A stretch of 32,000 nucleotides of DNA from Moraxella nasicaprae. Its GTDB lineage: Bacteria > Pseudomonadota > Gammaproteobacteria > Pseudomonadales > Moraxellaceae. The stretch spans positions 240,001 to 272,000 of the forward strand of contig NZ_CP089977.1 in assembly GCF_025643275.1 (NCBI RefSeq), read 5' to 3'. A program made the translations under genes and the position numbers. Each line of letters starts with the position of its first letter. Position 1 is the stretch's first letter. The notes beneath the pieces were generated by a model that saw only the letters and a program-made list of their open reading frames with translations, made no database searches and was not told where the DNA came from. Positions 26,199-31,071 of the stretch are shown here, in pieces.

Positions 26199-27737
26199 TC
26201 AAAAACGCTTTTTAAAGTTTGGAGGTAACTGACTGCCCAGCTCTTGCATTTTTTTCTGCATTTCTTCCATGCTGGGCATTTCGTTGGGATTTAGCCCTAA
26301 ATCTTGCATGGACTGCCTCATTTGAGCCATGTCTGGTGCAGCATCTTGACCACCCTTACCGCCAAACAAAGGACCTGACGCCATGCCACGAGTCAGACCT
26401 TGTACTGCTTTCATCATTTTGCCCAGACCCTCGGGACGACTAATCATCTTCATCATGCGAGCCATCTGCTTGTGCTGTTTGAGCAGGCGGTTCACATCTT
26501 GGATTTGTTTACCTGAACCTGCGGCAATACGGCGTTTACGGCTTGGTGTGATTTTATCAGGATTTTGGCGTTCAAAAGGCGTCATCGAATGGATTAAGGC
26601 TTCCATTTCCTTAACCTTTTCCTCAGGCTTTGCCTCTTCCATCGCTTTTTGGATATCAGCACCGCCTAAGCCTGGCATTTTATCCAAAAATCCAGCCATG
26701 CCACCCAAATTTTTCATTTGTTGGAATTGGTTGAGCAAATCTTCAAGGTCAAACTCCCCACCCTTTTGGATTTTTTTCGCCATGCGTTCGGCTTGCTCAC
26801 GGTCGATTTTTGCCTCAACCTCTTCAACCAGCGACAACACATCGCCCATGCCCAAAATACGCTGAGCGATACGCTCTGGGTGGAACAGCTCCAACGCTTC
26901 TAATTTTTCGCCACGACCCAAAAATTTGATGGGTTTGCCTGTAATGGCTCGTACTGATAAGGCAGCACCACCTCGTGCATCGCCATCGGTTTTGGTCAAA
27001 ATCACGCCTGTCAAAGGCAAAGCATCATTAAAGGCTTTGGCGGTATTGGCAGCGTCTTGACCTGTCATACTATCAACCACAAACAAAGTTTCCACAGGAT
27101 TGACAGCGGCAGCAAGCGATTTGATTTCGTCCATCATCTCATCATCAATGTGCAAACGACCTGCGGTATCGATGATTAAAATATCTTGGTATTGTAATTT
27201 AGCCTCGTTAATCGCACGATGGGCGATGTCTAACGGCTTTTCGTCAGGGCTTGATGGCACAAAACTTGCCTTAACCTGCATTGCCACCTGTTCAAGCTGC
27301 TTAATCGCTGCTGGACGGTACACATCGGCAGAAACCAGCATGACTTTTTTGTTATGTTTTTCTTGCAAAAATTTGGCAAGTTTACCTGCGGTTGTGGTTT
27401 TACCAGCACCTTGCAGACCAGCCAATAAATACACCATGGGTGGCTTGCCTGTCATTTCCAGCGACTGATTGGCAGCACCCATCATTTCTGACAATTCGTC
27501 ATAGACGATTTTAACAAAGGCTTGACCTGGTGCCAGCTCTTTTAGCACCTCTTGACCCAAAGCCTGTTCTTTGACTTTGGCAACAAAATCCCGAGCCACA
27601 GGCAAGGCAACATCCGCCTCCAATAGTGCCATACGCACTTCACGCAGTGTGTCTTTGATGTTGTCTTCGGTCAGTTGACCTGTGCCTGCAATATTACGCA
27701 GACTGCCAGAAAGTCGTTCGGTTAGAGTATCAAACAT
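26199..27737 (-). CDS. ffh: Signal recognition particle protein Ffh
   Basis: 512 aa. GLQGAGKTTT P-loop, DTAGR, TKTDGDARGG and a Met-rich M domain are present. The C-terminus is about 60 aa longer than E. coli Ffh (453 aa). Confidence 0.95.
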   Translation of the reverse strand: MFDTLTERLSGSLRNIAGTGQLTEDNIKDTLREVRMALLEADVALPVARDFVAKVKEQALGQEVLKELAPGQAFVKIVYDELSEMMGAANQSLEMTGKPPMVYLLAGLQGAGKTTTAGKLAKFLQEKHNKKVMLVSADVYRPAAIKQLEQVAMQVKASFVPSSPDEKPLDIAHRAINEAKLQYQDILIIDTAGRLHIDDEMMDEIKSLAAAVNPVETLFVVDSMTGQDAANTAKAFNDALPLTGVILTKTDGDARGGAALSVRAITGKPIKFLGRGEKLEALELFHPERIAQRILGMGDVLSLVEEVEAKIDREQAERMAKKIQKGGEFDLEDLLNQFQQMKNLGGMAGFLDKMPGLGGADIQKAMEEAKPEEKVKEMEALIHSMTPFERQNPDKITPSRKRRIAAGSGKQIQDVNRLLKQHKQMARMMKMISRPEGLGKMMKAVQGLTRGMASGPLFGGKGGQDAAPDMAQMRQSMQDLGLNPNEMPSMEEMQKKMQELGSQLPPNFKKRF

Positions 27738-27981
27738 AAGCGTTCCGTTAAAATTTAATCATAATCAATGATGGCAATGAATGTAGCTAACTGGCATCAA
27801 ATACACCCATCAACTCAAAGCTCCAATCATCAATATCGTTACCAATATTGGCAAAAATCTATGCAATATCCACCATGATATCATCAAGCCATTCTTATTG
27901 TGCGTAAGTCTAGCATTGATTAAAGCCATTTGCAACGAATGAAGAACATTATCCCAAAAAATCAAGCCTTTATCATCTTAT

Positions 27982-28029
27982 CTTGCTTACCATTCATTTT
28001 TTATGCCTTAAAAATTTATCTTAATTTGA
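27982..28029. repeat. Left-edge imperfect direct repeat of the ffh-ypjD islet
   Basis: The blocks CTTGCTT (27982), ATTCAT (27992), ATTTATCTT (28014) and ATTTGA (28024) recur in the same order at 30119-30158. Confidence 0.25.
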
Positions 28030-28047
28030 TTTGATGGATTGCCTTGG

Positions 28048-28122
28048 CTAATCCTTAATGATATTACGGCTAAAATTAACCGTATTTGCCCCCAGTACGA
28101 TGTTAATTGCTAATGCCATCAT
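28048..28122 (-). CDS. Candidate 24-codon small ORF (MMALAINIVLGANTVNFSRNIIKD) starting inside repeat copy 1
   Basis: SD AAGGAAAT lies just upstream of ATGATG. The first 7 codons lie inside the 54-bp identical repeat. Codons 8-9 differ from copy 2 only synonymously (ATC/ATT, GTA/GTT). Confidence 0.25.
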   Translation of the reverse strand: MMALAINIVLGANTVNFSRNIIKD

Positions 28123-28153
28123 ATTTCCTTTGGGTAATAAAAAACCCACCGAT
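28100..28153. repeat. 54-bp perfect direct repeat, copy 1 (3' of paralogue A)
   Basis: atgttaattgctaatgccatcatatttcctttgggtaataaaaaacccaccgat is identical 54/54 to 28752-28805. Confidence 0.9.
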
Positions 28154-28164
28154 GAGGGCGGGTT
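28135..28164 (-). terminator. Rho-independent terminator after paralogue A (one stem mismatch)
   Basis: On the minus strand: AACCCGCC-ctcatc-GGTGGGTT followed by TTTTTATTA. It partly lies inside repeat copy 1. Confidence 0.5.
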
Positions 28165-28180
28165 TGGTCAATGAGTTTGG

Positions 28181-28594
28181 TTAGGCTGTGATAAAGGGTT
28201 GTAATTTTTTTAAACCCGATGTATCAGCTCTTAGAATCGCCTGCCTCCCATCTCCTGCTTTTAATGCAAGATAGTGGTAGGTTTTATCATCTGGTGCTGT
28301 GAGCAACCCAAGTGCCAATGTACTCAGCCCCAATCCAACCGATCCAGTTAAAGCAACCCCAGTCGCTACAACGGTTCCGACCTGATGAATGCCCCCAAGT
28401 AGCGATTGAGCGGTTTCTGTTTTATCAAGTAGATGTAGCGTTGTTCCTGGCTGATTAAGGATAATTTCTGCATTTCCTGAAAACAGCCCACGCTTTTTCG
28501 GAAAAATCAGTGCAGGAGGTAGGTGATTATTCCGTACAATCATGGGCATATTCTTGTCAAAATCATTGGACTCAAAGACTGTTATCATAACCAT
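28181..28594 (-). CDS. Hypothetical small membrane protein, paralogue A (Gly-rich hydrophobic core)
   Basis: 137-aa ORF with an alternative start at ATG 28588. Soluble N-terminal ~60 aa, then a hydrophobic core GGIHQVGTVVATGVALTGSVGLGLSTLALGLL, then a C-terminal ~35 aa with DGRQAILRAD...FIT. It has its own promoter-like and terminator elements but no clear SD. Confidence 0.6.
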   Translation of the reverse strand: MVMITVFESNDFDKNMPMIVRNNHLPPALIFPKKRGLFSGNAEIILNQPGTTLHLLDKTETAQSLLGGIHQVGTVVATGVALTGSVGLGLSTLALGLLTAPDDKTYHYLALKAGDGRQAILRADTSGLKKLQPFITA

Positions 28595-28630
28595 TTAATG
28601 CTATTTGCATTGCTTATTCATTCCATTTTG

Positions 28631-28659
28631 ATTATAAAATTAAACAAATCCAAAAACAA
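28631..28659 (-). promoter_or_regulatory. Candidate sigma70 promoter for paralogue A
   Basis: On the minus strand: TTGTTT (28659-28654), 17 bp, TATAAT (28636-28631), about 35 nt upstream of the ORF start. Confidence 0.35.
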
Positions 28660-28751
28660 GTATTATTCAATCCTTCGCTCCAAGCCCTGCAATCAGCCGT
28701 GCCATACACGCATCAAGTTCAGCTTGTCGCTCTGCTTGATACTACTCAACA

Positions 28752-28805
28752 ATGTTAATTGCTAATGCCATCATATTTCCTTTGGGTAATAAAAAACCCA
28801 CCGAT
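28752..28805. repeat. 54-bp perfect direct repeat, copy 2 (3' of paralogue B)
   Basis: Identical 54/54 to 28100-28153. Weaker similarity continues about 25-30 nt toward each upstream stop codon. Confidence 0.9.
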
Positions 28806-28818
28806 AAAGGTGGGTTTT
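28787..28818 (-). terminator. Rho-independent terminator after paralogue B
   Basis: On the minus strand: perfect AAAACCCACC-tttatc-GGTGGGTTTT followed by TTATTA. Confidence 0.7.
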
Positions 28819-28835
28819 GTAAATCATGTTGTGAT

Positions 28836-29243
28836 TTAAGAAATGTATTTTAAAAACTGCTGATATTTTTTCTTATCAAGCTGCACAACAGCAGATTTGC
28901 CATCAGTAAATTCAATATGAGTAACATAAACATCTTTGGTGTGGTTTGGTAATTTGCTGCCAAACCACAATGCCGCAAGTGCAGGAAAGACACCTGCACC
29001 AAACAGCATTGCTCCCACAGTCATGCTTAATGCACCATTTTGAACTGAATTTGCCAAGGTTTTTACTTTGTCAGTATCAACCAGTTCAAATTTTTTTACT
29101 TGGGTGGATAAATTATATACTTGGCTTTTGTTTGTTTCTTTATCGGTCATGGCAAAGAAACGACCAGTTGAAGCCCCGCCATAAAGCACAAAATCATCAG
29201 AATGCAATATCTTGATACCAAACATAGCAAATCCCATCAGCAA
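28836..29243 (-). CDS. Hypothetical small membrane protein, paralogue B (Gly/Ala-rich hydrophobic core)
   Basis: 135-aa ORF with a TTG first codon. Alternative ATG starts at 29237 and 29225. Hydrophobic core NGALSMTVGAMLFGAGVFPALAALWFG and a C-terminal DGKSAVVQLD...YIS. The architecture is collinear with paralogue A. Confidence 0.6.
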   Translation of the reverse strand: MLMGFAMFGIKILHSDDFVLYGGASTGRFFAMTDKETNKSQVYNLSTQVKKFELVDTDKVKTLANSVQNGALSMTVGAMLFGAGVFPALAALWFGSKLPNHTKDVYVTHIEFTDGKSAVVQLDKKKYQQFLKYIS

Positions 29244-29453
29244 AGATTGTCTGTACCATACTAAGTTATCCTAAAATTCAAGCAAGGGCAAGCAAATGCC
29301 TAATGCAAATAATACTGTTTTTTGGCACGGTGCTTATCAAGGAATGCCAAAACTTGCTTGCGTCGTTCAGCAAAAGGCATTAAGCTGCCTGCTGCTTGTT
29401 CATTCTCGGAAGTTGGCAAGGTCTTTTCGTTTCTGACACAATAAATTCTGTCA

Positions 29454-29490
29454 TTGACATATATTCAAAATGACATTAGAATATATGTCA
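29454..29490 (+). promoter_or_regulatory. Near-consensus sigma70 promoter embedded in a 12-bp perfect inverted repeat (candidate Arc-type operator)
   Basis: TTGACA (29454-29459), 17 bp, TAGAAT (29477-29482). The inverted repeat is TGACATATATTC (29455-29466) / GAATATATGTCA (29479-29490). Extra TGTCA/TGACA half-sites lie at 29449 and 29471. Confidence 0.6.
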
Positions 29491-29519
29491 ATAATCAATC
29501 TTAAAAAAGGTACTATTTT

Positions 29520-29732
29520 ATGTCATATTTGAATACCACCGAACTACTTCAAAATCAAGACACTTGGAAACGCTCACAAGTACGCCTGCCCAACAGCCTT
29601 TATCAAGTGGTTGCCAAATATGCAGAAGAGCAAAGTATGTCTTTAAATACTGCCATCATTCATCTTTTGGACATAGCTTTGGTTGAAGCCAACGCCAAAA
29701 AGCAAGCTCTAAACAACCAATCAGAGTCATAA
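29520..29732 (+). CDS. Arc/MetJ-type ribbon-helix-helix DNA-binding protein
   Basis: 70 aa. The segment KRSQVRLPNSLYQVVAKYAEEQSMSLNTAIIHLLDIAL fits a beta-strand, helix A, helix B layout like Arc/Mnt-family phage repressors. SD AAAAGG. Confidence 0.7.
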   Translation: MSYLNTTELLQNQDTWKRSQVRLPNSLYQVVAKYAEEQSMSLNTAIIHLLDIALVEANAKKQALNNQSES

Positions 29733-29775
29733 AACAAGCGGGTGTTTTTGCCTGTTTTATGGACTGTTGGTAAAT

Positions 29776-30078
29776 TTACACTTGCTTTGCCTGATGCTTG
29801 GCAAACATCGCCATCAGAGCTTCGGCATCTTTTTGGGCTTGCACTTGTGCCTTATGCCGTTCGTACTCTTCACGCATTTCATCGGTCATGGGGTTTGGGT
29901 CAATGGGCAAAAAGTCGCTGATGGACACCCCGTCATTACCCAGCTTGGCATACAATAGATGGGCGGTCTGAATGTCCTGACGAAAGCCGCCGAAGGGGTC
30001 TAGGCGGTCGTAGGCTTGCCATTCGATGAGTTCATTATAAGACAGCTCATCTTCAAGCTCGCCTACGGTGCGCTCTAA
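29776..30078 (-). pseudogene. Start-less remnant of a lambda-type tail assembly protein T (Phage_tail_T / tail assembly chaperone-like)
   Basis: My own minus-strand translation gives a 100-codon frame, open from a TGA at 30079-30081 to a TAA at 29776-29778. Sequence: LERTVGELEDELSYNELIEWQAYDRLDPFGGFRQDIQTAHLLYAKLGNDGVSISDFLPIDPNP... The pattern RTVxEL..S..E...W.AY.RL.PFG..R.D...A matches my memory of the T-domain family. There is no upstream G gene. Confidence 0.5.
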
Positions 30079-30118
30079 TCAATGATGTATATTGACCGTT
30101 TGTGATTGATTCATCAGC

Positions 30119-30158
30119 CTTGCTTTTGTTAATTATTCATATTTATCTTGTATTTTGA
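30119..30158. repeat. Right-edge imperfect direct repeat of the ffh-ypjD islet
   Basis: CTTGCTT (30119), ATTCAT (30135), ATTTATCTT (30141) and ATTTTGA (30152), collinear with 27982-28029. Confidence 0.25.
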
Positions 30159-30279
30159 CTATTCATCAGTTCAAATCTATGATAAATTAGCAAGCATTTC
30201 CATTAACATTGCACCATGCCCATTAACTTAATCACCCAAATGTGTGCTGATGAGCTTGATGGCAATAAAAGAGGTTTGT

Positions 30280-31071
30280 GTGCTGATTGTTTTTTTGATG
30301 ACCACCATCATCTATTCCACCAGCAGTGTGTATCTGACACATACACTACTGCAAAAAACTACCCCAAATAAGTTTGGGTTACTGGGTTTCTTGATACTCG
30401 GTGTGTGCTTGCACGGTTATCTACTATATCCACAAATAATGACTTTACATGGCTTAAACTTCAACCTGTTTAACACATTGAGCCTAACCAGTCTGTTTTT
30501 TGTGATTTTTTATGTGCTATTTGGATTGTATCGCCCCATTTTAAGTTTAGGGATTTTGGCAGTACCCATCGCACTGGCTGGTGTTAGCACAGGTTATTTT
30601 GGCAAGGCAAGTTACCAACCGATTGCCAGCCTTAATATCGGCTTGCAGCTTCACATTTTGTTATCGTTTGCCGCTTACTGCGTTTTATTGATGGCAGCCG
30701 TGCAGGGTTTTATCCTAAAATTACAAATCAAAGAACTAAAACACCAAACCATTCATCGCTTTTGGGTCAGTCGTCTGCCTGCCTTGCAAAGTATGGAAGG
30801 TCTGCTGTTTGATATGATTTTGATGGGCTTTGTCATTTTAAGCATTGCACTTGGTTTTGGATTTGTGGCAACCTATGACATCTTAGACCAGCACATCGCC
30901 CATAAAATGTTTTTTAGCTTGGCAAGTTGGGTTGTGTTTGGCATTTTGATTGCAGGGCATTATCTGCATGGCTGGCGTGGTAAGCGTGCGGCAAATTTCA
31001 CCATTTATGGTTTTATCTTACTTGCCATCGGTTTTGTGGGTTCAAAGGCGGTGCTGGAATTGATTTTGTAG
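30280..31071 (+). CDS. ypjD: Cytochrome c assembly family inner-membrane protein YpjD (CcsA-like)
   Basis: The track ORF starts at 30244. I prefer GTG 30280, which has the SD AAGAGG 5 nt upstream and gives 263 aa, the same length as E. coli YpjD. The 26-residue spacing to the LLQK motif and the C-terminal GWRGKR motif also match. Confidence 0.8.
   Translation: MLIVFLMTTIIYSTSSVYLTHTLLQKTTPNKFGLLGFLILGVCLHGYLLYPQIMTLHGLNFNLFNTLSLTSLFFVIFYVLFGLYRPILSLGILAVPIALAGVSTGYFGKASYQPIASLNIGLQLHILLSFAAYCVLLMAAVQGFILKLQIKELKHQTIHRFWVSRLPALQSMEGLLFDMILMGFVILSIALGFGFVATYDILDQHIAHKMFFSLASWVVFGILIAGHYLHGWRGKRAANFTIYGFILLAIGFVGSKAVLELIL

Follow-up and report, generated by a model that had tools for sequence, protein, structure and literature searches.

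In a 32,000-nt stretch of the Moraxella nasicaprae genome (assembly GCF_025643275.1, contig NZ_CP089977.1, positions 240,001 to 272,000; hereafter the window, with coordinates counted from its first letter on the + strand), a 54-nt sequence occurs twice, at 28100-28153 and 28752-28805, each time shortly downstream of a small minus-strand gene, here called A1 and A2. This odd perfect repeat is very probably the footprint of two phage moron slots: the locus as a whole, from about 28050 to 30100, is best explained as the decayed remnant of a Moraxella siphophage tail operon that carries two morons stacked one behind the other.

A first-pass annotation of the window, made from the letters alone, had reported an exact twofold repeat about 30 nt 3' of the stop codons of two paralogues, with weaker similarity running back to the stops and adjacent coding sequences diverged past recognition at the nucleotide level. 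All of this holds. The copies differ at no position, and no further match with three or fewer mismatches is found in the 32-kb window or in 100 shuffles; counted over this window, there are two copies, both at stubs of a gene for a phage tape-measure protein (TMP). They lie 27 nt and 30 nt from the stop codons of their minus-strand open reading frames (ORFs; 28594->28181 and 29225->28836, respectively). Extended without gaps, the repeat measures 83 nt (28097-28179 against 28749-28831) at 89% identity, and its nine mismatches are unevenly placed, one at 28099 on one edge and the other eight within 28154-28176, in the 26 nt nearest the upstream genes. Since a mismatch-free run of at least 54 nt has a probability of ~3e-4 when nine mismatches are placed at random, the sharp boundary of the 54-mer is real. 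Outside the 83 nt, nucleotide identity is 19/60 past the stop codons and 4-5/30 on the opposite side.

The two copies (J1, 28100-28153, and J2, 28752-28805, both read on the minus strand) have identical content, which the first-pass annotation had parsed correctly from the sequence as a terminator arm with T-run, a Shine-Dalgarno (SD) sequence and the start of an ORF. In the minus-strand direction, each comprises the 3' arm of a hairpin, a U-run, ATTACCC, the SD sequence AAGGAAAT and then ATGATGGCATTAGCAATTAACAT, that is, ATGATG with TMP codons 2-8, giving the ORF start MALAINIV. The A1 terminator (28142-28165, minus strand), a terminator-like site in our scan, has a 9-bp stem, a 6-nt loop and U6, with a folding energy of -13.7 kcal/mol. 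Its stem is unbroken, by way of a G.U pair, only on the minus-strand transcript, the + strand fold having an internal mismatch (z 0.14), and it therefore fits a terminator of minus-strand genes. The A2 terminator (28790-28821, minus strand; 10-bp stem, 6-nt loop and U-run; -15.2 kcal/mol, z -2.7) is identical to the hairpins found 3' of an A1-type gene in contig L027 and of an A2-type gene in contig L054, both discussed below. What follows the two hairpins are dead TMP stubs of 20 and 9 codons. Stub 1 (28048-28122, minus strand) reads MMALAINIVLGANTVNFSRNI and then IIKD-stop, its TMP homology extending from 28119 to 28060 over 20 codons; stub 2 (28742-28774, minus strand) reads MMALAINIV and then E-stop, with TMP homology up to 28749, at codon 9.

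The identity of these stubs follows from intact phages, as MALAINIV is the N-terminus of the TMP of Moraxella siphophages. A scan of viral contigs for this ORF start returned two informative ones. In L021, an A2 homologue and a hairpin are followed by an ORF of 683 aa starting MALAINIVLGANTAHFSRNIQKATKN; in L014, a different gene of 147 aa and a different hairpin precede TTTTTTTATTACCCAAAGGAAATATTATGGCATTGGCA..., which opens an ORF of at least 386 aa. The 683-aa protein is a TMP by its matches to PF20155 (TMP_3; E 1e-60) and to phrog_339 (tail length tape measure protein; E 6e-141), and the stubs of the window align with the starts of this protein and of one encoded in L008 (PF20155, E 1e-60 and 1e-57, respectively). 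A search for a full-length gene beginning MALAINIVLGANT, which the first-pass annotation had proposed as a check, thus led to the tape-measure gene of Moraxella phages. M. catarrhalis genomes likewise carry an A2 homologue and a similar hairpin, followed by a gene starting MALAINIVLGANTVHFSRNI.

Both L014 and L021 have the gene order tail tube, assembly chaperone, T (PF06223), A-type gene, terminator and TMP, whereas in phage Mcat23 the TMP gene (MLSLNIVLGANTAHFSRNI...) comes directly after T, with no gene between them. Because of this difference, we take the 54-mer to mark where an extra gene lying between T and TMP ends on its downstream side, with the first eight TMP codons included. In the terms of Hendrix and Juhala, a moron is an extra gene between otherwise adjacent genes, as seen in L014 and L021 relative to Mcat23, and it possesses its own downstream terminator, as seen in the hairpin and U-run of A1 and A2 and likewise in L014 and L027. 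The gap between T and TMP in this phage lineage is a moron slot, made up of a promoter-like site, a single variable A-family ORF (~130 aa), a terminator hairpin with U-run, and the ribosome-binding site (RBS) and start of the TMP gene. The earlier interpretation of the repeat, as the point where a variable gene upstream meets the conserved 5' end of the gene downstream of it, is therefore borne out by the TMP genes of L014 and L021 and by the A-family slot.

Read in the direction of the A genes, the remnant in the window consists of a T-gene remnant (T'), an Arc-like gene on the opposite strand, A2 with its flank, TMP codon 9 running straight into a T-gene tail, a promoter-like site, A1, its flank, TMP codon 20 and a stop codon. 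The phage structural genes are all truncated; A1 and A2 are intact. T' (29776-30073, minus strand) derives from a phage minor tail or tail-assembly protein T (PF06223, E 3e-15, 56.7 bits against a gathering cut-off of 25.9), lacks ~9 N-terminal codons and a start codon, and is 81% identical at the nucleotide level to the T gene of L014. A 3' fragment of a second T gene (28667-28747, minus strand; YQAERQAELDACMARLIAGLGAKD, then stop) is fused directly to TMP stub 2. The 26 nt of it that abut J2 (28747->28722) match the T gene of L014 at 96%; the fragment matches that of L027 at 86% over 44 nt, and it continues to ...AELDACMARLIAGLGAKD and a stop. The J1 region (28147->28060) matches the terminator/TMP-start junction of L014 at 93% over 88 nt, comprising T-run, SD sequence and 20 codons, and the J2 region (28799->28749) matches L014 at 94% over 51 nt and L027 at 96% over 70 nt. 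With codon 9 of the TMP gene in copy 2 fused to the tail of a T gene, it follows that two complete slots have been joined head to tail.

The remnant, ~2.1-2.4 kb in size, is flanked by the chromosomal genes ffh (26199-27737, minus strand) on one side and a ypjD/ccsA-like membrane protein gene (30244-31071, + strand) on the other. As ffh and the ypjD-like gene are divergent neighbours, ~90-360 bp apart, in seven other Moraxella species (L033-L041), the 2.5-kb interval 27738-30243 is an insertion. Its exact junctions cannot be mapped against the empty ffh/ypjD site, the intergenic DNA being too diverged, and the ~280 bp between the ffh promoter region and TMP stub 1 (27770-28048) matched nothing to which they were compared. 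An exact 23-mer of the repeat gave no match in the genome contig collection, which is explained by the absence of M. nasicaprae from that collection; the best ypjD relatives in it are 59-71% identical.

A1 (28181-28588, minus strand, 135 aa, in the ORF from 28594) and A2 (28836-29225, minus strand, 129 aa) are the cassette genes of the two morons. BLASTP finds no match between them; in a profile-profile comparison, the A1 relatives and the A2 family match with a probability of 94.9% (E 4.2e-8, 84 columns), so that the description of the two as diverged paralogues was right in the sense of remote homologues of one slot. A1 also matches the 147-aa slot protein of L014 over its hydrophobic segment and C-terminus (BLASTP, E 5e-6). 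A1 has few relatives, finding itself alone among 5.8 billion clustered proteins and two homologues (47% and 33% identity) among 1.8 billion representatives, and exact-protein look-ups of A1, P0001 and P0002 returned none on record; relatives of A2 occur in M. catarrhalis phages and prophages, and its only match in PHROGs is phrog_20920, a family of unknown function. The two proteins have in common an N-terminal strand motif (I.V..S.DF), a central Gly-rich hydrophobic core with a Kyte-Doolittle 19-residue maximum of 1.75-1.86, and a C-terminal DG[KR].A motif. Ratios of dN/dS of 0.14-0.26 for A2 pairs and 0.23 for A1 against its L027 homologue argue that both are real genes under purifying selection.

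Upstream of A1, a promoter-like site, TTGTTT-17-TATAAT (28631-28659, minus strand), was read by eye and from alignments; its -10 box and the context TTTGTTT..TTTTATAAT are conserved in L027 and L054. Corresponding sites are TTGCAA-16-TATAAT in L014 (10/12) and TTGAAA-17-TATAAT in L027 (11/12), and the A2 site in the window scores 9/12. Counting the window, A genes occur in no fewer than four decayed settings, the others being L001, L027/L054 and L002 of M. catarrhalis. In L001 (9446-10390), from a metagenome-assembled genome of a Moraxella sp., the A2 homologue (95% identical) lies in a different chromosomal context between a divergent 100-aa gene and purH, with no flanking T or TMP sequence, which suggests that the gene is kept after all phage sequence has gone.

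The slot also exchanges its contents. The metagenome contigs L027-L030 contain a T' of 87 aa, an A1-type gene, a hairpin, an SD sequence and a TMP stub (...KSKPYI-stop), followed by a convergent Cu-ATPase gene. L054-L056, whose run accessions fall into the same numeric range, have the same T' and Cu-ATPase gene and a TMP stub cut at the same point, with one residue different (...KAKPYI-stop). Their cassette is of the A2 type, with 89% DNA identity to A2 of the window, between flanks that are 96-97% identical to those of L027. That one and the same remnant carries either an A1-type or an A2-type gene between the same flanks is evidence of cassette swapping, and since both alleles share the T and TMP truncations, the swap most likely took place after the prophage had decayed. 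The stretches compared are 729-1155 of L054 and 467-929 of L027; the left breakpoint lies directly after the -10 box of the TTGAAA-17-TATAAT promoter and the right breakpoint at the start of the terminator hairpin. The stretch from stop codon to hairpin is specific to the cassette type, J1 resembling L027 and J2 resembling L054, and everything from the hairpin onward is common to all. The mechanism was most likely homologous recombination in the flanks, for which the 54-mer flank probably serves as a homology anchor.

For the tandem in the window, we propose that a single illegitimate join, from TMP codon 9 to a point ~25 codons before the end of a T gene, stacked the two complete slots, either between two phage genomes or between tandem prophages, and that later deletions would have removed the remaining prophage. 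This modifies the earlier suggestion that alternative cassettes accumulate in tandem by recombination within a conserved flank. The accumulation of alternative cassettes stands, A1 and A2 being of one family and the L027/L054 pair showing a swap, but the tandem itself arose from the join of TMP codon 9 to the T tail and not from a crossover inside the 54-mer.

That two prophages lay side by side and an internal deletion then linked the TMP gene of the first to the T gene of its neighbour, rather than a single phage having carried two stacked morons, is a serious alternative, though somewhat less likely than not. The two T pieces are of different types, T' ending ...AEALMAMFAKHQAKQV and the fragment ...AELDACMARLIAGLGAKD, and a similar fusion of a TMP head to T, annotated as a 68-72-aa 'gene', lies in M. 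catarrhalis beside another prophage at a tRNA-Leu site. One illegitimate crossover between co-infecting phages would, however, yield the same structure, and with it a viable phage whose intact T gene comes from one of the parents and whose TMP gene comes from the second; the content of the window does not discriminate between the two routes. The M. catarrhalis 'gene', which is called in many genomes of that species and also in phage Mcat6 and follows an A2 homologue, is a chimera of ~35 N-terminal TMP codons with the middle and tail of a T gene (...DFLIIDPNPMTDEQ), found at 8468-8686 of L002 and also in L003-L007, L009-L013, L015, L016, L019, L020, L022, L023, L025 and L026. The join is of the same type as in the window, at a different codon, and the neighbouring prophage, next to the tRNA-Leu gene, carries Abi_alpha and an S24 repressor.

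A separate question is how the two copies came to be identical. The first-pass annotation held that perfect identity implies either recent conversion or recombination, or strong constraint. High conservation is indeed seen: in L014, L027 and L054 the flank matches that of the window at 94-96%, and it is recognisable in M. catarrhalis too; with such conservation across unrelated sources, 54/54 is only slightly above the level of the lineage as a whole. That J1 and J2 were recently converted or homogenised, either against each other or against an intact prophage at another site, instead of having inherited a conserved flank, strikes us as rather improbable. Such an event would account for an identity slightly above that of the window with L014 and L027 (57/58 when J1 and J2 are followed up to the deletion junction), for the significant clustering of mismatches outside the 54-mer, and for the contrast with the T-gene pieces of the two units, which are very unlike each other. 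Against a background of 94-96%, however, zero differences in 54 nt are not rare, with a probability of roughly 0.04-0.1, and both edges of the repeat have explanations of their own. At the right edge, cassette gives way to flank, at a boundary that the comparison of L054 with L027 shows independently, and the left edge is set by the deletion junction, the illegitimate TMP-to-T join. The sole difference between J1 and J2 up to that junction, a synonymous ATC/ATT in codon 8, sits right at this edge. We infer that the 54/54 identity reflects the generally high conservation of the flank; recent conversion is possible but not required.

Two further readings fare much worse. That the 54-mer encodes a functional small peptide or a small RNA (a type I toxin, for example, or an antisense RNA acting in cis), which had been listed as an alternative in the first-pass annotation, could draw on the short ORFs on both strands (24 and 10 aa on the minus strand, 38 and 33 aa on the + strand) and on the stable hairpin. 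We regard it as very unlikely, as the minus-strand ORFs encode N-terminal TMP pieces that break off at unlike points (codons 20 and 9) and whose start opens long TMPs elsewhere, the + strand ORFs diverge after the repeat, the whole window has no Rfam match, and only a minus-strand transcript would form the J1 hairpin without a break. A generic dispersed repeat (repetitive extragenic palindrome or miniature inverted-repeat transposable element), an attC site of an integron and an orphan module from a locus of polymorphic toxins and their immunity proteins are all highly improbable: a hairpin-bearing direct repeat 3' of two small genes in the same orientation might recall any of these, and a 21-mer within it, TTTTTTATTACCCAAAGGAAA, recurs in other phage contigs, but the two copies in 32 kb are both at TMP stubs, and in 44 fetched loci TTACCCAAAGGA is confined to such junctions, with one occurrence in each locus. 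The repeat holds a simple 9-10-bp terminator stem with a 6-nt loop and lacks paired core sites like those of attC. The interval from ffh to the ypjD-like gene encodes neither an integrase nor a toxin, and the flanking homology is to phage tail genes. The attC reading was rejected on the grounds that there is only a terminator stem and that no integrase is found among the ORFs of this interval. The toxin/immunity analogy drawn in the first-pass annotation likewise falls away in a decayed prophage tail operon whose flanking fragments are those of phage T and TMP genes and which has no toxin domain.

The 21-mer TTTTTTATTACCCAAAGGAAA, which spans U-run, ATTACCC and RBS, is present in three other IMG/VR contigs and nine metagenome contigs, some of them GC-rich (L042 11412-11432, L043, L044 4380-4400, L045-L053). 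It usually stands after an unrelated hairpin and 3-6 nt before the ATG of varied genes, among them other TMP types, an HK97-type capsid protein, a TraR-like protein and a lysozyme-domain virion protein. In L042, three extra genes stand between TMP and a putative T-like gene (no Pfam match), and the 21-mer again forms the end of this block. A rough estimate for an AT-rich 21-mer in a collection of that size is ~0.5-5 chance matches, and terminator-plus-RBS contexts are common, for which reasons we do not take it as proof of a universal, shared mobile linker; it could be a shared junction module or partly a product of chance.

The remnant has acquired one more gene. An Arc-like ribbon-helix-helix protein of 70 aa is encoded at 29520-29732 on the + strand (weak Pfam match to Arc; phrog_8682, E 4e-33; Arc-like repressor phrogs). 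It is a further insertion between T' and A2, in opposite orientation, and is absent from the T-A2 interval of the intact L021. Next to it, a 17-bp inverted repeat (29453-29492, 94% complementary) lies under divergent promoter-like sites, TTGACA-17-TAGAAT on the + strand (11/12) and ATGACA-17-TAAGAT on the minus strand (9/12), the latter pointing toward A2. The inverted repeat is likely the operator of the Arc-like protein, and the two together resemble a small repressor switch that could control A2. Two further elements were seen in this part of the window: an ORF of 39 aa (MPTSENEQAAGSLMPFAERRKQVLAFLDKHRAKKQYYLH, 29300-29419, minus strand) between the divergent promoter region and A2, with no family match, and an 18-nt inverted repeat (28650-28667 / 29308-29325, 89% complementary) that pairs the regions upstream of A1 and A2 and may be due to chance.

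In functional terms, each A gene would be transcribed from its own promoter and stopped by its hairpin, forming an autonomous unit like a moron, with the terminator insulating it from the former late operon. The A proteins would be membrane proteins that were kept for their benefit to the host. Gene 15 of phage HK97 was the first moron to be named. Located between the genes for the tail assembly chaperone and the TMP, it encodes an inner-membrane exclusion protein that blocks DNA entry in a tail- and TMP-dependent manner (PMC3594210). Like HK97 gene 15 (Juhala et al. 2000; Cumby et al. 2012), the A genes occupy the siphophage slot before the TMP gene, encode small, predicted membrane-associated proteins, would form separate transcription units with (in A1 and A2, predicted) promoter and terminator, and are absent from close phage relatives, here Mcat23. 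By this analogy, we tentatively propose that A proteins block DNA injection by related phages, that is, mediate superinfection exclusion as gp15 does from the same slot; we consider this the most likely role, though somewhat short of even odds, judging from where the genes lie, the size and membrane character of the proteins, their hypervariability and their persistence in no fewer than four decayed contexts. Another envelope-related role in lysogenic conversion is about equally likely. There are also differences, since the hydrophobic segment is central in A proteins and N-terminal in gp15, and since the window stacks two members of the family in a decayed phage context. A proteins may thus work like gp15 without being members of the gp15/YebO family.

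Several observations weigh against the interpretation of the locus as a pair of stacked morons with a gp15-like role. Neither A1 nor A2 has a match in Pfam (E <= 0.01), NCBIfam or PADLOC, and the similarity to gp15/YebO that the comparison might lead one to look for was not found, in Pfam and NCBIfam or by a fold link; the AlphaFold2 model of A2 is of moderate quality (pLDDT 69) and has no fold match. The A1 promoter of the window is weak in its -35 box and below the scan threshold. Furthermore, the join and the deletions may have come in either order, and the M. nasicaprae genome may hold, elsewhere, more copies of the 54-mer or an intact prophage that acted as a conversion donor.

Other systems of exchangeable genes resemble the T–TMP slot in part. 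The temperate phages P2 and P4 have hotspots of variable accessory and defence genes between conserved core genes (PMC9122126). As there, conserved phage genes bracket rapidly exchanged cargo, with alternative cargo at the same position in relatives, but P2/P4 hotspots hold diverse multi-gene defence systems, whereas here one small ORF, drawn from a single hypervariable family and with no PADLOC match, makes up the cargo and is exchanged also inside a dead chromosomal remnant. Integron arrays too have short ORFs in the same orientation, each followed by a repeated hairpin element, and the L027/L054 pair is integron-like in that the promoter lies in the conserved flank and the swapped unit is essentially a promoter-less ORF; unlike in integrons, however, there is no integrase, the repeat is a terminator plus gene fragment and not an attC site, and homologous recombination in the flanks is the best account of the exchange. 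Orphan modules of contact-dependent inhibition (CDI) and Rhs loci likewise form tandems of alternative cassettes, each with a piece of a conserved neighbouring gene. In contrast to these, no toxin gene or domain is present here, the conserved pieces are the ends of T and TMP, and the cassettes are related to each other and not toxin-specific immunity genes. It is conceivable, if doubtful, that the slot and its remnants have become a small, domesticated, integrase-free anti-phage 'cassette trap', in which the T-tail and terminator/TMP-head flanks would let the host capture by homologous recombination, and even stack, hypervariable membrane-protein alleles from incoming phages, the family acting to block TMP-mediated DNA injection.

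Morons at this position, hotspots of variable cargo (PMC9122126) and the retention of useful prophage genes are already known. What is modestly new is an uncharacterised, hypervariable family at the T–TMP slot, a stacked pair produced by joining a TMP head to a T tail, and the replacement of alleles within a dead remnant. The locus points to a fast-evolving family of small, predicted membrane proteins, encoded ahead of the tape-measure gene in Moraxella phages, whose genes are retained by their hosts after the prophages have decayed, and it provides evidence at the sequence level that such cassettes are swapped between fixed flanks even in dead remnants. If A proteins exclude phages, they would be relevant to the host range of phages in Moraxella, a genus of respiratory and ocular pathogens, and would extend the paradigm of HK97 gp15 to another bacterial family.

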